Source: a virus. From it: 64,000 nucleotides of DNA. The stretch is taken from UHGV virus genome UHGV-1363143. One strand, written 5' to 3'. The notes beneath the pieces were generated by a model. It had not been told where the DNA came from. It ran no database searches and saw only the letters and a list, made by a program, of their open reading frames with translations. The position numbers were made by a program, and so were the translations under genes. Positions 5,533-55,018 of the stretch are shown in pieces (positions within the stretch are counted from its first letter, which is position 1; every line of letters begins with the position of its first letter).

Positions 5533-5550
5533 GTTTATCCTCCTGTATGT

Positions 5551-6045
5551 CTAAAAGTAAATCCTTTCTTTTTTCTTTAAATCAATAATCCTTTGATTAG
5601 CAGAGCCTGTATATAGCTGTGCACCTTCACGATTATCTATTTCGAACCTTCCATCAGCTAAGTAATCAGCTATTGAAAGTATTTCGTGTATATATGAATT
5701 ATTCATACCTATTAACTGCTCATAGGTTCTACCAGAATAAATCATTATATTAAGTGATGGGCATTCAGACTTTATTCTTTTACAAAGTTCTAATATTTCC
5801 TTTGGTTGCTCCATAGGATCTCCACCACTAAGAGTAACTCCTTCTATAAATGGACTAGATTCTATATGTTCCATTATTGTATCTATAGGCATACTTACTC
5901 CTAATTCTTTGTTCCATGTATGAGTGTTATGACACCCAGGGCACCCCATTGAGCACCCTTGAGTGAATAGAACATATCTCATACCAGGTCCATTGGCTAA
6001 ACTATCATATAGTTCACCTGCTGTTTGTATGTTCATATAATGCAT
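5551..6045 (-). CDS. nrdG: anaerobic ribonucleotide reductase activating protein NrdG (radical SAM)
   Basis: GCSMGCPGCHN cluster motif and SGGDP motif. The track ORF (5551..6156) overlaps nrdD; the likely real start is MHYMNIQ at 6045 or 6036. Confidence 0.8.
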   Translation of the reverse strand: MHYMNIQTAGELYDSLANGPGMRYVLFTQGCSMGCPGCHNTHTWNKELGVSMPIDTIMEHIESSPFIEGVTLSGGDPMEQPKEILELCKRIKSECPSLNIMIYSGRTYEQLIGMNNSYIHEILSIADYLADGRFEIDNREGAQLYTGSANQRIIDLKKKERIYF

Positions 6046-6049
6046 CTCC

Positions 6050-8218
6050 TTAAAGCTTTTCTTTTTGAGCGTTAGCATAGATTTTTGCGTCGCTATCATT
6101 ATTATGAGCAACTCTATCAGCTCTTTCAGCTTCCTTACCTGCACCAAATCTTTCATCTAAAGCTAAATATCCTGTTATTCTAGATACACCTTGTATTTTT
6201 CTAGAACCACAATTAGGGCATTCTTCTTCAGTTCTTAATAACTGTCCACATTCTTTACAGTATCTAACGTGGAAGTTAATTCCGATATATCCCATATTGG
6301 TATTAGTGAAAGTCCAAGTAATTATTTTTTCTATTTCTTCTGGTGTAGGATAATCATCTAATTCAATATAAGAAATTCTTCCACCATTACATAATTCGTG
6401 GAATGGAGCTTCCTTTTGGATTTTCTCCTTAACAGATATCTTAAATCCTGGATTAATATGATATCCATTAGTATAGTAAGCATGGTCTGTTACTCCTTTT
6501 ATTTCACCGTACTTAGCTTTGTCTATTGCAATAAATCTACCGCAAAGACCTTCTGATGGTGCAGCATAACAGCTCCAATTTAATTTATCTATTTCTTTAT
6601 ACTTATCACAGTATTCTCTAATCATTCTTACTACAGTATCAGCTATTTCTAAAGCTTTTTCATCTTCACCATGATGTTTACCGATAGCAGCCATTAACAT
6701 TTCATGTATTCCAATAAATCCTATTGCATAAGAACCTTGTTTTAAGATAGGTTCAATAGAATCATTTGGCCCAATTTCTTCTGCTCCCACATACATATTA
6801 TTTTCAGTTAAGAAAGGAATGTCTTTTCCTTTTAATTGCTTTAATACACTATATCTGTATAATAATGATTCTCTAGTTAAATCAAGCATTTTTAATAAGC
6901 TATCATATAAGAACTTAATCTTTTCTTCATCTGAACATCCAGTTTCTTTTTGGTGTAATGAAGCTTCTATACCTAATCTAGGTAAATTGATTGTTGTTGG
7001 TGCAATATTGCCCCTTCTCTTAGCTCCTTTAGGCCCATTGATATTATCAATAGTACTTGTTCTACATCCCATTGTGCTTATTCTTACTCCTTGCTCATGT
7101 AAAGGTAAGTTATAAGAAGCATCAATATTTAAGAATGTTGGGTTTAATCTTCTTGAAGCTACTTCACAAGCTATTTTGTATAAGTAGTAATATGGATCAC
7201 CAGGATTTCTATTAACTCCTGACTTAACTGCGAATACCATATTAGGGAATATTAATTGCTCACCAGCACCTAATCCTTTTCCATATTCTATTAATGCATG
7301 CTTACATACTAATGCAGCATCGTCATCCTTAGGTAAACCTATATTTAAAGAAGAGAATACTATTTGAGATCCACTTCTTGATTCCATAGTAGATAAATTG
7401 TACATTACTGATTGCATGGCTTGGCCTACAGCTTTATCAAGCTTAGCCTCAACTCTTGCTTTTATAACATCTTCAGGTTGACCAACCATTAATGCTGAAT
7501 ATTCTTCATATATTTCATCTCTTGTAGCTTTTACAAATACAGCCATATCATTATCGAAGTCATCTATACTTTGTCCTCCGAACATTTGATTTTGAGCACA
7601 TTGTAATAAGATACAAGCTAATTCAGCAGCAACATTAATTCTTTTAGCTGGTCTAATTGTTCCGTATGAAGTTTTAAAACCTGTCTTCAATGGTTCTAAG
7701 CTATGAGAGCAACAATTAAATGTTAAGTTAAAAGCATCTAAATCATGAAGATGATAATCTCCTTGCTCATGTGCTTTCGCAATATGTTTAGGCATGTTAG
7801 CTAAGTTTTGCCACTTATTTGATTCAGAAGCTATTCTTAATAGCTTTGCTCCAAAGTTATTACCAACATTACCATTATCTCTATCAGTATGAACACCAAT
7901 CTTTCTAATAGCTTTCATTATGTCAGATTTAGTTTCTCTTACTTCATTTCTTTCTTTTCTATAATCTAAATATGCATCTTTAGTTAATCTAAATCCATTT
8001 ACATATATAGCTGTTTGAATGAAATCTTGTAGTTTTTCAACTGTGATTTCTGTTTTATTTAACTCTGATATTTTAGCTTCAACTACATCTAAAATAACAT
8101 TAAGAACTTCAGCGTCTATTATTTGTTTTGCACTTTTAGCAGCATTAATAACTGATGCAGCTACCTTTGTTCTATCATAATTTGTTTTTCTACCATCTCT
8201 TTTTATAATTGTAATCAT
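6050..8218 (-). CDS. nrdD: anaerobic ribonucleoside-triphosphate reductase NrdD
   Basis: 722 aa with a C-terminal Zn ribbon (CKECG...CPNCG) and the glycyl-radical motif RITGYLA. Confidence 0.9.
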   Translation of the reverse strand: MITIIKRDGRKTNYDRTKVAASVINAAKSAKQIIDAEVLNVILDVVEAKISELNKTEITVEKLQDFIQTAIYVNGFRLTKDAYLDYRKERNEVRETKSDIMKAIRKIGVHTDRDNGNVGNNFGAKLLRIASESNKWQNLANMPKHIAKAHEQGDYHLHDLDAFNLTFNCCSHSLEPLKTGFKTSYGTIRPAKRINVAAELACILLQCAQNQMFGGQSIDDFDNDMAVFVKATRDEIYEEYSALMVGQPEDVIKARVEAKLDKAVGQAMQSVMYNLSTMESRSGSQIVFSSLNIGLPKDDDAALVCKHALIEYGKGLGAGEQLIFPNMVFAVKSGVNRNPGDPYYYLYKIACEVASRRLNPTFLNIDASYNLPLHEQGVRISTMGCRTSTIDNINGPKGAKRRGNIAPTTINLPRLGIEASLHQKETGCSDEEKIKFLYDSLLKMLDLTRESLLYRYSVLKQLKGKDIPFLTENNMYVGAEEIGPNDSIEPILKQGSYAIGFIGIHEMLMAAIGKHHGEDEKALEIADTVVRMIREYCDKYKEIDKLNWSCYAAPSEGLCGRFIAIDKAKYGEIKGVTDHAYYTNGYHINPGFKISVKEKIQKEAPFHELCNGGRISYIELDDYPTPEEIEKIITWTFTNTNMGYIGINFHVRYCKECGQLLRTEEECPNCGSRKIQGVSRITGYLALDERFGAGKEAERADRVAHNNDSDAKIYANAQKEKL

Positions 8219-9257: not shown

Positions 9258-9300
9258 TAAAAAAAATAAGATACCGTAGGGAACTATTTAAGCTCCCTAC
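9258..9300 (-). terminator. rho-independent terminator
   Basis: Hairpin gtaggga-N11-tccctac (9276-9300) followed on the minus strand by U8 (the A-run at 9261-9268). Confidence 0.6.
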
Positions 9301-9306
9301 TTTTAA

Positions 9307-9639
9307 TTACCTTGGTTTAACTTGCTTATTACTTCTCATTCTTAACATAGTTCTATGACATTTAATACATTCATAAGGTCTACACCCTATATTATAGAAT
9401 TGTTGAACTGCCATACATGAGCTATGTGCTTTACCTCTTTTAGGAGTTTCGCCTGTTGATTTTGCGTAATAATTCTTAATACATTTTATTTTTGTCTCAT
9501 TAGTTAATAGGATAGAATCAAATACTATTGTATCTATTTCAGGTTGTCCATCTACTGAATTAAAATTAAGAATTTCTTCTAAATCTTTAATGTTAATGCC
9601 TTCTATCTGATTTCTTGTTTTTCTTTGAAATATGTTCAT
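9307..9639 (-). CDS. hypothetical protein with Cys/His cluster
   Basis: ORF; CMAVQQFYNIGCRPYECIKCH cluster. Confidence 0.4.
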   Translation of the reverse strand: MNIFQRKTRNQIEGINIKDLEEILNFNSVDGQPEIDTIVFDSILLTNETKIKCIKNYYAKSTGETPKRGKAHSSCMAVQQFYNIGCRPYECIKCHRTMLRMRSNKQVKPR

Positions 9640-48568: not shown

Positions 48569-49043
48569 TTTCGCTTTTTCTCTTTATATCCTTGTCTATC
48601 ATCAAACATCCAAATAAATGATCTAATTCATGTTGAAATACTACTGCTTCTAGGTCTTTAAGTAGTTTCTTTACTTTTTGTCCATTTTCATTAATGTACG
48701 CTACTTTTAACATCTTGTATCTTCTTGTAAGACTTTTAGTCTCTGGTATGGATAAACAAGATTCACTAAAGAAACCTATTTTATTTGGATACATCTTAAT
48801 GATTTCTGGATTTATGCAAACAGTAATCTCTTCTATATTTCTTGGATTAACCATTGCAAAAGCCATCTTATTTACTCCAATTTGTGGAGCTGCTATTCCA
48901 AGACTTGTATTTCCTTCACCGAAATGAGCTTTTAATGAAGTAATCAATTCTTGTTCTTTTTCTACAGATTCAATAGGTTCAGAAATTTTTCTTAACACCT
49001 TTAAATCTTCTTCTGATTCAATAGTTAGTATTCTATTATTCAT
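48555..49043 (-). CDS. def: peptide deformylase
   Basis: The GIAAPQIG, ESCLSIPE and QHELDHLFG motifs. Confidence 0.8.
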   Translation of the reverse strand: MNNRILTIESEEDLKVLRKISEPIESVEKEQELITSLKAHFGEGNTSLGIAAPQIGVNKMAFAMVNPRNIEEITVCINPEIIKMYPNKIGFFSESCLSIPETKSLTRRYKMLKVAYINENGQKVKKLLKDLEAVVFQHELDHLFGCLMIDKDIKRKSESEEI

Positions 49044-49151
49044 CCTTCCTCCTTATACTGACCAAAACTTTTTTCGTTTCGGTTCGATATTTTATATTAT
49101 GTTTTTATAAAAAAAGAGCCTACTAATGTAGACTCAAAATTATAAACTTTT

Positions 49152-49520
49152 TTATGCAGCTCTTTTTACAACTAATAAATCCCTTGCTCCTCCTAGAGGA
49201 TCGTTGCCTTGGTACTCTATACCAAAAGCTAAGTATTTAGTATTTGAGCTTTCTTTTAATTTATTAAGATTATGAACTATTCTTTCTAGTCCTTCACTAT
49301 TTATAGGCTCTTTTATTGTAGATGACTTCTTACCACAGATAGGTTTATCATAAGAAGCATATATGTATAAACTTTCTATTTTAGTATGAGGACACTTTAA
49401 TTCTTTTTTAATTTCATTTATTTCTTTTTCTAAATTTCCTAATGTTAAATCACTAATATTTTTTATCATAGCGAAACCTCCAATACGAAACATAAAAAAG
49501 CACAAAAGGACACCAACCAT
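49152..49520 (-). CDS. hypothetical protein
   Basis: ORF. Confidence 0.35.
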   Translation of the reverse strand: MVGVLLCFFMFRIGGFAMIKNISDLTLGNLEKEINEIKKELKCPHTKIESLYIYASYDKPICGKKSSTIKEPINSEGLERIVHNLNKLKESSNTKYLAFGIEYQGNDPLGGARDLLVVKRAA

Positions 49521-50039
49521 ACGAAGATATCCTGTTATGCTTTAATTTGCTTATAGTTTAAAATTAATTATTCTTTATTTCTCTTTGAGTAATTCTTTTA
49601 ATTCTTGACCTAGATATCTTATGTAACATTCTTTTATCTTTTGATCTGAGCTTTGTATTTTGAACTACTATCTTTTCATAAAAATCTAAAGCAGTTGCTT
49701 CTTTCGAATTATTCTGTTTAAATAAATCCATAATGCTATCAATCCTTTCTTTATTCAGAAATTAATTTTGCATTTACATATTTATTATCTAACTTTTTCG
49801 TCATTTACCTCATAAATATAGTTAAACTTCTTTTACAAATATTTTTCCATTGGGAGCAGTATAAAATATATCTCTTTTAAATGACATAAGATAAGAAACT
49901 CCTGGAATAACTAATACATTCATATCTGTAATAATAGTATTTAATTCAAAAGTTGCAATCACTTCTCTTGTATCTTTTTTAAAAATAACTAAAATTTGCA
50001 TTATTCAACCTCAATTTATAATTATTCTCTTTTATATAA

Positions 50040-50068
50040 AAAACCCAGGGCCTTTCGGACACCTGGGT
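50040..50068 (-). terminator. rho-independent terminator downstream of the tRNA operon
   Basis: Hairpin cccagg...cctggg followed on the minus strand by UUUUUU. Confidence 0.5.
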
Positions 50069-50074
50069 ATGATC

Positions 50075-50149
50075 TGGCGGAACTAGTAGGATTCGAACCT
50101 ACAACCTATCGGTTAACAGCCGAGTGCTCCACCTTTGAGCTGTAGTTCC
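50075..50149 (-). tRNA. tRNA-Asn (GUU)
   Basis: Manual cloverleaf with acceptor ggaacta/tagttcc, T-loop GGTTCGAATCC, anticodon loop cuGUUaa, and CCA encoded. Confidence 0.7.
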
Positions 50150-50934
50150 ATAATTCCAGCGTCCGTATGGACCTGGAGATCTCCTTCTATCTTAGATAGA
50201 TGAGCTAATGTAAGCACCACATTTTATAATCCCTTGCATGGATTGGGCAGGCACCATTATTTTTACATGCATGGTTGCATTGACCTAGCTTACTTTTTGT
50301 TCTTTCGGTCTTATTGATTATTACTATCCCACTCGTGAATAGCATATTTGTTTGAAACAATCGCCTGCACAATGCAAGCCCCAGAAAGAGTTTATCTTTC
50401 AAAATTAATGCAAGGTGGGGTGGCGTATCCCACATCTCTAACCATAACAATATATGTAGTATAGACTGCCTGTTTCTACTTCTTGCATTTTTATATCTAA
50501 TTGCTTACTTGAAAAACACGAGCTAATTACATTAGCTACTAAAACTCATAAGCATAAATATACCTTCTTATAAGAGTTCCTAATCTATGTCTAAATAAGA
50601 AGTATATTAGTTTCATAAGGATATAGATTAGGTTTCACCTTACTTTTTATTATTGCTTGAAAAAACCCTAAAAATTACTAAGCAATATATATATTCTTCT
50701 CACTTCCGAAACCAGCACTCCATGTCCTTCGAATATATAGTTTTTTTGTTTCGCTGATCTGGTCCTCTATGCAAAACTTTAAAGGGAAATTTGCTTACCG
50801 CCACAGTTCCTTCCTGCTCGTCCATAAGCTATTAAGTAGATAAATTACTCCTACTTAACTAGTGCGTCTCCAGTGAGCATAGTAAATCAGGCCAATCAAA
50901 TCAGCTAAATACCAGAGGCTTGAGAGGTTCTATT

Positions 50935-51008
50935 TGGAGCTCCTACTCAGAATCGAACTGAGAACAGAAGATTACAAGTCTACCGTTTTACCTTTAAACT
51001 ATAGGAGC
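50935..51008 (-). tRNA. tRNA-Thr (UGU)
   Basis: Cloverleaf with acceptor gctccta/taggagc, anticodon loop cuUGUaa, and CCA encoded. Confidence 0.6.
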
Positions 51009-51164
51009 ATATAATACTTTCGGTGTGCTACAGAAATCTAAGTTTCTGTTAATAGGCAAGGCTGTCTATATCAGGTATTCAGTAATTATGTACACTTTTA
51101 ACTGAACCATACTATATATCCCTACACGCTACTCTTAACTATAAGAACACCGAAAATATTATAA

Positions 51165-51239
51165 TGGTACTCCATGGGGGACTCGAACCCCCGATACACG
51201 ATAGAAAGTCGTGTGGCTTAACCACTTGCCGAATGGAGC
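51165..51239 (-). tRNA. tRNA-Glu (UUC), probable
   Basis: Cloverleaf with T-arm ggggg/ccccc and anticodon stem cacga/tcgtg; the loop cuUUCua has an unusual U37. Confidence 0.5.
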
Positions 51240-51318
51240 ATAATTTGTGCTATCTCTTTTAGCTTGTACTTCGCCAAGGATGATAGCTATCCTTATCTGT
51301 ACAAATTACAGATTTCTC

Positions 51319-51390
51319 TGGTGCAGATTGCTGGAATCGAACCAACCCTTATAATCTTATAGAAAACGCTCTACCTTGAGCTAATCTGCA
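51319..51390 (-). tRNA. tRNA-like element with intact acceptor, D and T arms but no foldable anticodon stem (possible pseudo-tRNA)
   Basis: gcagatt...ggttcgattccagcaatctgcacca carries the right length between the D and T arms, but the segment UUUUCUAUAAGAUUAUA cannot form a 5-bp stem. Confidence 0.3.
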
Positions 51391-52418
51391 TATTATATTT
51401 CCAGAGCTTTCAGATCCTATCTCTGGTACTCAACTTTTGCAGCATTATTGATTCTCTGCTTATCCACATTCTCTTGAATGTATTGAGTTATGCCTGCCTT
51501 GTTTAATGAGTGGCTTATCTCATCTAATAGTACACTACTCTACACCATTGATTATATCAACCTTGCGGGCTGTTCAGGCTGCTACCCCTTATACGCTCTC
51601 CGATATAGAACAATCAAGCTTTTGCGAAGCTATCATGCGCTTCATTCACTTTTCAGTGTGAAGCATTAAGACACTTTCATGCACTACGAGGATGAACTTT
51701 CGCTTTTATATAGAATTAATATCTGTAAATTCTTAAATATTGTTTTATTTCCCAAAACATATAGCTTAAATTCATCATTCATTAAATTTTCAAACTGTAG
51801 ATGTGTCATCCTATCAGCTCGCTTCCCTTTTGAGGAAGTAAATACTGGACACCTACATAGCTTTCACTCAACTAAGTTACTAACTGGTAATAAATCATAC
51901 TCTAGGATACCTCCGTCTCTCAACTTCTAAGGTCCTATTTCATTTTTATTACTGGCCAATGCTCTTGCCTGTTAAACTCGAACTACTAACCTTCTGCTAT
52001 AAATAGTTTATTTCATTAGTTTTGGTGTGTGCTATCTGATTACCAGTCAGAAACTCCTTCAGAGAGTATATCCCCTACTTTCTTACCAGCGTTGCCCATA
52101 AGCGAGCTTTCGCACCTAACTTATAAAACCTTATCCAATAATCGTCTTTATCTCTTCCGCCTACTGAATAACATTTAAATTTATGCAGATTGCTTGAATT
52201 AACCTAATATTTCAAGGCGAGAATTTGTTAAATTCCCTTTACGCACATCACTGTACGCTATTCATGTCAAGCCATGTTTACTTATTTTTTTTATAGAACC
52301 TAGTACAGATTCTTGTATGTAATTCCTACCTCTATTACATACTAGGCTCTTGCCTACCGATGTTTTCCTTATTTAAAACTAAGTACTGAAAAGAAAACTC
52401 ATAACCAAAAATCGTACT

Positions 52419-52494
52419 TGGTGAAGGTAGAAGGGTTTGAACCTTCGGCCCCAGCATTAAAAGTGCTATGCTCTACCAACTGAGCTATACCTTC
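52419..52494 (-). tRNA. tRNA-Lys (UUU)
   Basis: Cloverleaf with D-arm gctcagttggtagagc, anticodon loop cuUUUaa, and CCA encoded. Confidence 0.75.
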
Positions 52495-52501
52495 ATATTA
52501 T

Positions 52502-52578
52502 TGGTAGTGGATATAAGAGTCGAACTTATCACCTTCTGCGTATCAGGCAGATGCTCTAACCAAATGAGCTAATCCACT
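52502..52578 (-). tRNA. tRNA-Ile (GAU)
   Basis: Cloverleaf with anticodon stem tctgc/gcaga and loop cuGAUac. Confidence 0.75.
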
Positions 52579-52584
52579 ATATTA

Positions 52585-52669
52585 TGGTGGGAACTGATGG
52601 AGTCGAACCACCCGAGCTAAAGCAACAGATTTACAGTCTGCCCCGCTACCATCTACGGTATAAATTCCC
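52585..52669 (-). tRNA. tRNA-Tyr (GUA), type II (long variable arm)
   Basis: 85 nt, anticodon loop cuGUAaa, long variable arm. Confidence 0.65.
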
Positions 52670-52763
52670 GTATTGACATTGTTAATTGGCTAAATTATTA
52701 TAATTGTAAATGTACTATACTTACAAAGAACTAGATCAATCTTCGGATTGGTCTTTTTCTTAT

Positions 52764-52850
52764 TGGCAGGGGCTGTAGGATTCGAACCTACGTGGTGTTG
52801 TGCACAATGGTTTTGGAGACCACCGCCCTCGACCTCTAGGCAAAACCCCT
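52764..52850 (-). tRNA. tRNA with Trp anticodon (CCA) and an atypical 15-nt variable arm
   Basis: Acceptor and anticodon arm (gguggu-CUCCAaa-accau) resemble bacterial tRNA-Trp, but the gene is 87 nt with the insert ugugcacaacaccac before the T-arm. Confidence 0.5.
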
Positions 52851-52985
52851 GTAAATCTCCCGATTAGTTTAAAGACATTTATGGGACTGGTCATTAGAGA
52901 GGTCTTATGTATAAATTAAAACGTTATGCATAAATATATTATGTTAACATCTATAAAAAGACTACTGATTTGAAAAACTTTTTTA

Positions 52986-53072
52986 TGGCGGAGAGTCTGG
53001 GACTCGAACCCAGAAGCCATTACTGACCAACAGTTTTCAAGACTGTCTGACTACCAATTATCACAACTCTCC
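52986..53072 (-). tRNA. tRNA-Ser (UGA)
   Basis: 87 nt with acceptor ggagagt/actctcc, anticodon stem acagt/actgt, loop cuUGAaa and a long variable arm. Confidence 0.7.
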
Positions 53073-53090
53073 ATGTTTATAGGAGAAAAC

Positions 53091-53170
53091 GAAATAGGTG
53101 ATAGGAATTGAACCTACACTTACTGCCATCCCTATCTCTAGCTGGCCTTGCTTCATTCTCCTGTTGCAAC
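53091..53170 (-). tRNA. tRNA-like remnant (T-arm-like gtagg-ttcaatt-cctat only)
   Basis: An 80-nt spacer between tRNA-Gln and tRNA-Ser contains a T-arm-like hairpin and a 7-bp aggagaa/ttctcct pairing, but no canonical cloverleaf. Confidence 0.25.
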
Positions 53171-53245
53171 TGGCGGAGGTGGAAGGGATTGAACCTTCGA
53201 ATGATGGAATCAAAATCCATTGCCTTACCACTTGGCGACACCTCT
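53171..53245 (-). tRNA. tRNA-Gln (UUG)
   Basis: D-arm gccaagtggtaaggc (Gln-like), anticodon loop uuUUGau, weak 1-72 pair, and G73. Confidence 0.65.
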
Positions 53246-53446
53246 ATATAAAATGGCAATTTTACCGTTTGCCAAACGTTCTATGGTTTATACAAAAACT
53301 CATATCGTAAAATTTAAACGGGCTTAAGTGCCCTAAATTCTGGCATTTCACCACGGGTATTTAGCAACCCAGGATTTTTATTATTGAATCTAATAAATTA
53401 AGATCCGTTCTAAGCACTGCAAAAAAATCTTAAAAAAATTTCGCTT

Positions 53447-53522
53447 TGGTCGGAGTTACAGGACTCGAACCTGTGATCTCATGGTCCCAAACCATGCACC
53501 TTACCATCTAGGCCAAACTCCG
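53447..53522 (-). tRNA. tRNA-Pro (UGG)
   Basis: cggagtt acceptor, anticodon stem catgg/ccatg, loop uuUGGga. Confidence 0.75.
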
Positions 53523-53531
53523 ATATATAAA

Positions 53532-53623
53532 TGGCGGAGGACACAGGATTCGAACCTGCGGAGGAACTTTCGTCCCTCGAATGCTTAGCAAGCACCTGCC
53601 TTAAACCTCTCGGCCAATCCTCC
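53532..53623 (-). tRNA. tRNA-Ser (GCU)
   Basis: 92 nt with ggaggat acceptor, loop uuGCUaa and a long variable arm. Confidence 0.7.
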
Positions 53624-53713
53624 ATATTAATAGCTCATTTTGGTCAGTTGAGCTAAACTGTAGTCTATAAGACTAAAAAATGAACATTGGAATTTAATAT
53701 TGAATTGAATTAG

Positions 53714-53790
53714 TGGCGACTCACAAGGGGATCGAACCCTCGACCTCTGGCGTGACAGGCCAGCACTCTAACCATCTGAGCTAGTGAGCC
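53714..53790 (-). tRNA. tRNA-Asp (GUC)
   Basis: Anticodon stem ctggc/gccag with loop cuGUCac. Confidence 0.75.
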
Positions 53791-53796
53791 ATATTA

Positions 53797-53885
53797 TGGT
53801 GTCGTGAGAAGGATTCGAACCTCCAACCACCTGAGTCTTGTTAATGGAGCTCCCTCAGTGCGTATACCAATTCCGCCACCACGAC
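53797..53885 (-). tRNA. tRNA-Leu-like gene with an expanded 18-nt anticodon loop
   Basis: Leu-type D-arm gcggaattggtatacgc and good acceptor/T arms, but ctgag-[ggagctccattaacaaga]-ctcag replaces the 7-nt loop. Confidence 0.4.
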
Positions 53886-54000
53886 ATATCTATGTTTCTA
53901 TATTATGTGCCTTCTAAAAAAAAGACTACTCCTGAAAAATGTTTTTTAGATTTTTCGTCGTACTTCATTATTACAAGCTATATTTTTCTTATACACATTT

Positions 54001-54034
54001 GAAAATAAAAAAGCTGGGAATTTTTTATCCCAGC
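54001..54034 (-). terminator. rho-independent terminator after the endolysin gene
   Basis: Hairpin gctggga-N8-tcccagc followed by UUUUUUAUUUU on the minus strand. Confidence 0.6.
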
Positions 54035-54040
54035 CTTATA

Positions 54041-55018
54041 TTACAGCTTTGCTAATAAATCATTAGCTATTGCATTAATGTTTCTTGACCATGTGGTACC
54101 TTCGCAATATTTTGTATTTACATTCCATATGCTAGGTCCATTATAATGAGCTCCTCCTTCAGTAAGGTAAGCAGTATTAATAAGATTAGCTATATAATTT
54201 AAGCTCTCTCCCCAATTATCAAATCTTCTCCATGAGTTACCTTTTTTAACTCCACCAATATTATTATATGTTCTAGCTAAATAAGATCTTCCATGTCCTG
54301 ATTCTTCCGAGTTAAGTGCTATTAAGAATATTGCATTTACATTGTATTTCTTTTCTGCATAATAATATGCTTTTGATAATGATTGTAATGCACTGCCCTC
54401 TAACATTTTATGAATTTGAGACTCTGATAAATTACTTAATTCTCTCAAGTTATAAGGATTATAATGAGGAATTCCATCTACTTGTTTTTGTACTTTTGGT
54501 TCCTTATATACTTCATATGGTGGGTTTTCTTGATATTGTTCAACTAATGACATATCAATAAAACCTTCTTTGCCATTATAATTAATTTTTAACCAGTTCC
54601 ATTGTCTTTCAATTATCTCAAAAGTCATACCTTTTCTAAATAAAAGAATTACTTCTGAATCATAATTAGGTTCTGTTCTAAAACGAGAATAGTCAGCGAT
54701 AACTTGTCCATATTTTTGATGTTCAGTTTTTAATCTTTGCTCTTCTTCTAACCTTTCTTGCTCTAGTCTTTTTTGTTCAACCATTTCTAAATGTTTCTCA
54801 TAAATGTTTTTGGGACTCATAAAAATAGGATTTGTAAGAGATTGGTCTTCTATTGATAGCTCTATTGCTGCAGGTTCTAATTTATTATTAATACGCATGT
54901 TATTACTTGCAGTATCAAAACAATGTACTGGCAAAAATGTAGATGTATATGCATATAAACCAGCTAAGCATTTAGCTAAATGTGTCATAAAAACACTCCT
55001 TTCTGATTTCTCCCTCAT
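54041..55018 (-). CDS. endolysin: N-terminal SH3-like domain + GH73 N-acetylglucosaminidase
   Basis: C-terminal LNSEESGHGRS...YNNIGGVKKG...WRRFDNWGESLNYIANLI matches the GH73 (FlgJ/LytD-type) catalytic region. A central SH3-like segment reads FRKGMTFEIIERQWNWLKINYNGKEGFID. Confidence 0.6.
   Translation of the reverse strand: MREKSERSVFMTHLAKCLAGLYAYTSTFLPVHCFDTASNNMRINNKLEPAAIELSIEDQSLTNPIFMSPKNIYEKHLEMVEQKRLEQERLEEEQRLKTEHQKYGQVIADYSRFRTEPNYDSEVILLFRKGMTFEIIERQWNWLKINYNGKEGFIDMSLVEQYQENPPYEVYKEPKVQKQVDGIPHYNPYNLRELSNLSESQIHKMLEGSALQSLSKAYYYAEKKYNVNAIFLIALNSEESGHGRSYLARTYNNIGGVKKGNSWRRFDNWGESLNYIANLINTAYLTEGGAHYNGPSIWNVNTKYCEGTTWSRNINAIANDLLAKL

Follow-up and report, generated by a model that had tools for sequence, protein, structure and literature searches.

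In the 64,000-nt stretch of the virus genome UHGV-1363143 that was analyzed here (the window), the spacer between a tRNA-Thr and a tRNA-Asn gene at positions 50150–50934 is probably a functional non-coding RNA region, which is read from the minus strand and composed of several modules. By comparison of related phages, four of these modules (A1, A2/X, E, and F) and a member of the skipping-rope RNA family (Rfam RF02924) are shown to keep their predicted base-pairing through compensatory changes. An earlier reading made from the letters alone (the sequence-only reading) had proposed a structured RNA at this place, co-oriented with the flanking tRNAs. The structured RNA is supported by the RF02924 match, the compensatory changes, and the conservation in five related phages, and the orientation by the position of skipping-rope on the tRNA strand, which is the minus strand; rather than one fold, a mosaic of about seven independently folding modules was found. 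The Rfam search and the comparative alignment for compensatory substitutions which that reading had suggested yielded skipping-rope at 58.2 bits and covariation in related phages, respectively.

Pairwise and multiple alignments were used to divide the spacer into seven modules, which follow each other in the RNA as A1-A2-B-C-D-E-F from high to low coordinates, all on the minus strand. A1 (50793–50934) is a domain of ~140 nt, and A2 (50650–50792) is a short member of a family named 'X' here. B (50490–50649) is AT-rich, contains hairpins, and is present in the three closest phages only. C (50407–50489) is the skipping-rope RNA with an Rfam match above the gathering score, directly followed on its 3′ side by the four short hairpins of D (50323–50406). 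E (50206–50322) includes an element of ~108 nt common to Clostridium perfringens siphophages, and F (50150–50205), present in all six phages compared, consists of two stable hairpins forming the 5′ leader of tRNA-Asn.

For comparison with known RNAs, Rfam 15 scans were performed permissively over 49000–55000 and for the spacer alone at E-values of ≤10. The only non-tRNA matches above the gathering score in 49000–55000 were GOLLD, located outside the spacer, and skipping-rope, both on the tRNA strand. Using cmscan, skipping-rope was found at 50407–50489 (minus strand) with 58.2 bits versus a gathering score of 36.7 (E-value 3.4e-13) and covered model positions 1–80 of 80, so that a catalogued RNA accounts for ~83 nt of the 785. 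The scores in the relatives L006 and L020 were 57.8 and 60.8 bits. The phage RNA has the closing stem P1, two 5-bp hairpins with 9-nt loops, the GAGAU linker, and the AUACGCC.C loop, and in the cmscan alignment every helix is paired except for the variable middle hairpin. Two GC-rich palindromes quoted in the sequence-only reading are both present, and one of them, gcaaggtggggtggcgtatcccac at 50411–50434, turned out to be the 3′ hairpin plus closing stem of skipping-rope. Aligned to 34 bacterial members, the phage copy keeps GAGAU, and in its 3′ loop, AUACGCCAC, 8 of the 9 bases agree with the bacterial AUACGCCGC. For A1, A2/X, B, D, E, and F no match to ROOL (RF03087) or any other Rfam family was obtained (for A1 and A2 none at E-values of ≤10), and the remaining listed matches had E-values of 0.4–7 and were located on the opposite strand. 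Also, no GOLLD (RF02032) match at an E-value of ≤10 was found inside 50150–50934.

Useful relatives were found through homologues of the flanking peptide deformylase (PDF) and SH3-glucosaminidase (lysin). The cassette of modules was present in L003 (= L016; ~90% identical, 241 kb), L006/L007/L008 (245 kb), L009 (227 kb), L012, and L020, while L015 represents the window's own species (99.9% identical) and the more remote L010/L011 and L014 are without the cassette. Among GenBank phages no close relative was found, and besides tRNA matches the spacer matched only by E, in two C. perfringens phages. From IMG/VR, scanned with five patterns and a single protein, one relative and one E-bearing contig were obtained, and from a JGI metagenome scan only the window's own species and an L003-type relative; a plasmid search with the spacer and a genome scan for element E returned nothing. 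The sequences point to a Clostridium host for the phage, because the nearest cellular homologues of the lysin are from Clostridium and E is common to C. perfringens siphophages.

The order of modules differs between these phages. A1-A2-B-C-D-E-F in the window corresponds to A1-A2-B-X-C′-D-E-F in L003, A1-A2-B-X-C-D-E′-F in L006, A1-X-C-D-E′-F in L020, where the block is located behind tRNA-Glu and not tRNA-Thr, A1-X-E-F in L012, and A1-X-C-like-F in L009. E′ in L006 and L020 is a different element of ~60 nt at the position of E. Constant in the six phages are A1 abutting the tRNA 3′ end, a member of the X family after A1, and F abutting the 5′ end of tRNA-Asn; the interior modules are freely rearranged, being kept, lost, replaced, or duplicated. 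The modules are much better conserved than the neutral (synonymous) sites of the neighboring genes. In L020, identity to the window is 55% at third positions of the PDF gene versus 88% for A1, 93% for C, 80% for D, and 91% for F; in L009 the values are 62% versus 88% for A1 and 86% for F, and in L006 74% versus 97% for A2, 94% for B, 100% for C, and 93% for D.

This turnover bears on the view that the whole 785 nt form a single ornate RNA of large size, folded globally like GOLLD or ROOL, the modules being its domains. We consider such a fold unlikely. It would agree with the constant order at the two ends, with the whole-spacer minimum free energy (MFE) z-score of −2.7, and with the location in a tRNA island beside GOLLD, which is the typical setting of large phage RNAs (PMC5737381; PMC12286853). 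However, B, skipping-rope, D, and E are each missing in some relatives, E is swapped, X is duplicated, and the length of the block varies from 485 to 974 nt across the six phages. Skipping-rope and E also exist elsewhere as free-standing small RNAs, the block has no ROOL or GOLLD match, and no conserved long-range pairing was found in it. One candidate for the latter, an 11-nt pairing of 50203–50213 with 50527–50537 that would connect B to the E/F junction, was rejected, as L003 does not retain it and the junction stays conserved in phages lacking B; this complementarity was put down to a recurring word, AUUAGCU. The word is present on the minus strand in the optional hairpin of A1 (50895–50910), in a hairpin of B (50520–50540), and at the start of F (50150–50205), where it is invariant in six of six phages. 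It could be a shared recognition site for a protein or RNase, or occur by chance.

Module A1 adjoins the preceding tRNA's 3′ end without a gap and contains three stacked helices around an optional hairpin and two further hairpins. It is single-copy in all six phages, with the covariance model R2 finding one copy per phage, and is 88–95% identical in L003, L006, L009, L012, and L020, compared with 55–85% for third positions of the adjacent PDF gene. In the RNAalifold structure of A1, 97.9% of the alignment cells pair versus 31–49% in slid controls, three pairs show double changes, and the conserved helices contain 28 G-U cells versus no A-C cell.

A2 is a paralogue of a 190-nt element, X, of the relatives, and members of the X family have lengths of ~145–190 nt. 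The model R1, built from the five 190-nt X copies only (L003, L006, L009, L012, and L020) and comprising the helices H1–H5, recovers three A2 copies end to end with 51–52 bits and E-values of ~1e-8, and nothing else in 246 kb. The window's A2 at 50650–50792 was recognized over its full length with 51.1 bits (E-value 1.4e-8); this copy was not in the model, with the reservation that A2 was consulted when choosing among alternative helices. In A2, H1–H4 all pair, and H5, the extra helix of the full 190-nt copies, is absent. H1, H2, and H4 are wholly different in sequence between A2 and X and still paired. In the alignment of eight sequences, 95.6% of the cells are in standard pairs versus 36–42% when slid by 1–3 columns, and 19 of 44 pairs are changed on both sides. 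Of 500 shuffles, none came up to the observed values for four of five measures, and five did so for the fifth, the count of further pair types. The joining sequences are conserved as well (ACCA.(A)UC loop, AAAAACU, GAGUG..UGGU, CUUAGUA, and AGGG(G)UUU). A pseudoknot of the 5′ CCUCU with AGGGG inside H4 is possible, based on invariant positions or one-sided changes only.

Element E connects the cassette to a different group of phages. Its 108 nt at 50206–50313 are 83–85% identical to sequences of the phages vB_CpeS-17DYC and XP41-N3 (blastn, GenBank phages), and E is also present on the siphophage-like IMG/VR contig L004. Between the jumbo-phage and the siphophage clade, both partners have changed in three pairs with the pairing kept. 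The siphophage copy is located in an unannotated gap of ~860 bp, with an intrinsic terminator after it and TACTACATTT iterons further on. In the Clostridium phage vB_CpeS-17DYC (L001, 2345–2960), this appears as a terminated RNA of ~290 nt with E as its 3′ half and with the TACTACATTT iterons, possibly a replication origin, thereafter. A1, X, and E, all without a match in Rfam 15, are thus candidates for new RNA families, of which A1 and X appear so far confined to one jumbo-phage clade, with E found also in the C. perfringens siphophages.

Module F is 86–95% identical in all relatives, with one double change per hairpin. Having an MFE of −21.5 kcal/mol and a z-score of −3.75, it is the sole module with an outstanding folding energy. 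The other palindrome of the sequence-only reading, ccagcgtccgtatggacctgg at 50156–50176, is the second hairpin of F and shows a compensatory change from G-C to A-U in relatives. For B and D, the hairpins are without usable covariation. B contains a 10-bp hairpin (CCUAAUCUAU/AUAGAUUAGG, inverted repeat I2) and an AGCUAAU/AUUAGCU hairpin (MFE z-score −1.2); it is 87–94% identical in L003 and L006 and absent from L009, L012, and L020. D is 80–93% identical in L003, L006, and L020, where it always follows skipping-rope, and forms four hairpins by MFE (z-score −1.45), including a weak terminator-like one at 50363–50379 with a poor U tract.

If the block were a passive spacer, or one acting in cis, with hairpins that guide or protect the processing of the polycistronic tRNA precursor but have no function of their own, this would explain why, in all relatives, A1 follows immediately on one tRNA and F immediately precedes another, and also why F is a very stable hairpin pair. 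For F alone, a pure processing role may well be true. For the region as a whole we regard this as improbable: other spacers of the tRNA array have 6–200 nt (ARAGORN), so that 785 nt are not needed for processing, and conservation in A1, X, and E is as strong at unpaired nucleotides as in the stems. In addition, skipping-rope is an independent RNA gene in bacteria, and E occurs in phages without any tRNA nearby.

The conserved helices also bear on the strand. The X alignment contains 27 G-U cells versus 3 A-C cells, and together with the ratio in A1 this excess of G-U over A-C agrees with an RNA read from the minus strand and not with a DNA cruciform or an antisense RNA. A function at the level of DNA, for instance as an origin of replication, a packaging site, or a recombination hotspot, could be suspected from a non-coding block rich in inverted repeats and from the iterons adjoining the siphophage copy of E. 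Yet it is very unlikely, given a G-U excess that fits a one-strand RNA and a strand-specific Rfam RNA inside the block. Furthermore, a repeat search revealed no iterons or direct-repeat families in the spacer, and the siphophage E seems to be inside a transcript, because it is located upstream of a terminator.

The sequence-only reading had started from GC enrichment and a lack of open reading frames (ORFs). The GC content of the spacer is indeed elevated, with 35.7% versus 30.2% in the window outside the tRNA array (standard deviation 2.8% for 785-nt windows), and only 2.2% of the 785-nt windows elsewhere reach this value. The enrichment is real but modest, about two standard deviations, and patchy: A1 and F at the ends have 42–45% and skipping-rope 41%, whereas module B in the middle is under the background with 25.6%. 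The single 81-aa frame with unusual Cys and Trp content that had been reported is located at 50205–50450 on the minus strand, has a TTG start, and encodes 5 Cys and 3 Trp. No other ORF reaches 60 aa, and four of 34–41 aa are also inside the spacer. A decayed protein-coding gene was named by the sequence-only reading as what would speak against an RNA. The 80-aa version of the ORF in L003 could be taken in favor of a decayed or very small coding gene, but this version has a different start, L020 retains a 43-aa stump, and the ORF is missing from L006, where no ORF reaches 40 aa. No Pfam match was found for the 81-aa ORF, and it overlaps skipping-rope and element E, which are conserved as RNA structures and present in other contexts. 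With the ORF not conserved and no sign of a decayed gene, we regard a coding function as extremely improbable. Neither ARAGORN nor the Rfam tRNA model detected a pseudo-tRNA or cloverleaf inside the spacer.

Several points weigh against a functional multi-module RNA or against parts of this interpretation. Over the whole block, folding is no better for the sense strand than for the antisense strand (MFE z-scores of −2.7 and −3.7), and the z-scores of A1, A2, C, D, and E range from +0.6 to −1.45, no better than shuffled sequence, with F as the exception. Folding energy alone does not single the region out, and the support is comparative and not energetic. As to the comparison, there are six phage lineages only, most double changes in X reflect one old split between A2 and X so that independent events are few, and the counts in X come from an alignment that had been fitted to the model. 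Part of the conservation could result from recent recombination of the cassette between phages rather than from selection. Module B is the weakest, being without comparative support for its structure and represented by too few sequences for covariation. For skipping-rope, the loop of the first (5′) hairpin departs from the consensus at 3–4 positions (AACAGGCAG versus AAAUGGCUC), and directly 3′ of the phage RNA there is no terminator of its own but only the weak hairpin in D at 50363–50379; the operon terminator follows 340 nt beyond, after tRNA-Asn. Also, no ORF similar to PBECR3, the protein usually encoded next to bacterial skipping-rope RNAs, was found at an E-value of ≤10 in the 64-kb window of the ~240-kb genome or in the loci L001–L020 (~20 kb). 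In view of the altered loop and the lack of a terminator and a PBECR3 neighbor, the function of the phage copy may differ from that of the family.

To characterize the family outside this phage, one genome per species was scanned for its conserved core, resulting in 38 loci (L022–L059). Of these, 34 are of Clostridia type, the 17 without an adjacent PBECR3 gene being confirmed by Rfam (61–79 bits) and the 17 with PBECR3 resting on the 24-base core pattern; the remaining four are chance matches, three of which were put through Rfam without a skipping-rope result. Upstream sequence was sufficient at 30 of the loci, and in 17 of these a PBECR3 gene (PF18812, E-values 1e-18 to 1e-31) ends 30–98 nt upstream of the RNA on the same strand. 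The gene is solo and encodes 122–147 aa, and remnants of PBECR3 are present at two further loci. A TATAAT box precedes the RNA in the interval after the PBECR3 gene, with a clean terminator on the other side of the RNA, which argues for bacterial skipping-rope RNAs being genes of their own. Tandem copies occur in two loci, with three copies in L035 and two in L037. In L022 (Romboutsia sedimentorum), a Flavo-1 RNA (RF01705; 63.8 bits) is located at 6622–6698, ~480 nt from skipping-rope, in a Firmicute, which is outside the usual taxa of Flavo-1.

Skipping-rope RNAs are known from Firmicutes and phage-like contexts. According to Weinberg et al. (2017; PMC5737381), they are followed by a terminator, showed no self-cleavage, and have a 'compelling association' with a protein encoded nearby. 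According to the domain matches, this neighbor is PBECR3, a predicted RNase of the BECR fold. Domains of the PBECR type have been predicted to be RNases acting in conflicts of phages with their hosts (PMC5512222). Literature searches for a connection of skipping-rope with AbiF-type RNA systems did not reveal any.

Assuming a functional RNA region, the spacer cassette would be transcribed together with the tRNAs and set free on one side by RNase P cleavage at the tRNA-Asn 5′ end and on the other by 3′ processing of tRNA-Thr. The modules thus released would act in trans during infection, as has been proposed for GOLLD and ROOL. It is possible, and suggested here only tentatively, that the cassette has a role in phage-host conflict and that skipping-rope titrates or neutralizes a PBECR3 RNase of the host or of a prophage as a decoy or antidote. 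The idea arises because bacterial skipping-rope is usually located behind PBECR3, whereas the phage copy has no PBECR3 within reach, and action of the phage RNA on a PBECR3-type RNase from the host or a resident prophage would be the most economical, though tentative, reading. Other modules might have analogous roles, for which accessory-like turnover and the horizontal sharing of E are the only basis. Rather doubtful is the broader notion that the cassette is an RNA counter-defence island of orphan copies of small RNAs, which partner with conflict proteins in bacteria or temperate phages. The module RNAs would then bind and neutralize RNases of the host or of prophages, and the neighboring tRNA genes would replace cleaved tRNAs. 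If this were true, gain, loss, and swapping of modules between phages would be the trace of an arms race.

Concerning the locus, ARAGORN places the spacer at exactly 785 nt between tRNA-Thr and tRNA-Asn on the minus strand, as had been noted before. The upstream boundary is tRNA-Thr(TGT) at 50935–51008 (Rfam tRNA 65.3 bits), whose encoded CCA end abuts A1, and the downstream boundary is tRNA-Asn(GTT) at 50075–50149 (Rfam tRNA 65.2 bits). According to ARAGORN, both belong to an array of 14 minus-strand genes extending from 53885 to 50075. The intrinsic terminator closing the tRNA/ncRNA operon, CCCAGGUGUCCGAAAGGCCCUGGG followed by UUUUUU at 50036–50068 (minus strand), was read from the sequence and is kept in L003; a simple scanner had overlooked it due to an internal mismatch in the stem. 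A second terminator at 54010–54037 closes the lysin-like gene upstream of the array. As the array is flanked by these two terminators, array and spacers look like one minus-strand transcription unit.

The same operon contains the conserved 3′ domain of a GOLLD RNA (RF02032) at 51412–51857 (minus strand; 171.8 bits versus a gathering score of 150, E-value 1.5e-47), 480 nt upstream of the spacer and three tRNA genes away. GOLLD was also detected in L003, L006, L009, and L012. In the window it probably reaches ~52418, and the 560 nt up to tRNA-Lys are probably its variable 5′ half. Directly after GOLLD there is an odd tRNA-like gene at 51319–51389 (minus strand), which ARAGORN assigns as 'Tyr, anticodon ATA' and which has only 34.5 bits with the Rfam tRNA model; for its counterparts in L006, L009, and L012, ARAGORN assigns no anticodon ('tRNA-???'). 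The Thr-Glu spacer at 51009–51164 (minus strand, 156 nt) shows a long-range stem (UUUCGGUGU/ACACCGAAA) and an internal hairpin, and further small structured RNAs may be located in other spacers of the array.

In the relatives, the surroundings of the cassette show additional rearrangements. L020 has, at 5538–6127, the 5′ half of a tRNA-Asn, then a 140-aa ORF with a weak match to HNH endonucleases, and then a complete tRNA-Asn, and L012 has a chimeric, partly duplicated tRNA-Asn at 9260–9390; both disruptions look like homing-endonuclease traffic at the tRNA-Asn gene. In L009, a twister-P1 ribozyme match below the threshold (48.6 bits versus a gathering score of 67.2, E-value 9e-8) is located at 1580–1652 between tRNA-Trp and tRNA-Ile, and no counterpart of this match was found in the window.

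Enigmatic RNAs such as GOLLD and ROOL are already known from phage tRNA islands, and the present island holds a further layer, a compact and exchangeable cassette of small structured RNAs within a GOLLD operon. The results provide three candidate families (A1, X, and E) outside Rfam 15, with a covariation in X that is unusually clear for so few sequences, and they place skipping-rope in a virulent-type jumbo phage without its usual gene neighbor. The link to PBECR3 gives the orphan motif described in 2017 a testable partner and also offers a test of phage RNA decoys against RNase-based defence.

Compared with known systems, module C agrees with the skipping-rope family in a full-model match above the gathering score and in the layout of stem, hairpins, and GAGAU. 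It differs in being embedded in a tRNA operon, whereas bacterial copies stand alone with their own promoter and terminator, and in its score of 58 bits versus 61–79 bits for the Rfam-checked bacterial members. The tRNA cluster of phage T4 encodes 'species 1' and 'species 2', which we take to recall this cassette as small stable non-tRNA RNAs among phage tRNA genes. Species 1 and 2 are released from tRNA precursors by the tRNA-processing enzymes. They are not known to be related in sequence to the modules, and two short RNAs there contrast with a 785-nt chain of seven modules here, including families that also occur outside tRNA clusters.

By analogy, the combination of PBECR3 and skipping-rope resembles the RNase and cognate small RNA of type III toxin-antitoxin pairs, a likeness in possible mechanism and not in family membership. 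In both cases an RNA is found beside a small gene of endoRNase fold, and skipping-rope is sometimes present in tandem copies. In contrast to these systems, bacterial skipping-rope is located after the protein gene, so that the order is reversed, and it is usually a single-copy fold of three hairpins and not a 36-nt repeat. A phage-encoded pseudo-ToxI allows a phage to escape ToxIN, a type III toxin-antitoxin system. The likeness to the present phage is that it carries the RNA without the protein.

With GOLLD and ROOL (PMC5737381; PMC12286853), the cassette shares the nature of a structured non-coding RNA that is co-located and probably co-transcribed with phage tRNA genes. There, one large conserved fold is formed, whereas the spacer of UHGV-1363143 is a string of small exchangeable modules with no match to them in sequence or structure. 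Taken together, the skipping-rope part of the spacer adds a new member, at an atypical place, to a known family, and its setting matches the habit of GOLLD and ROOL.

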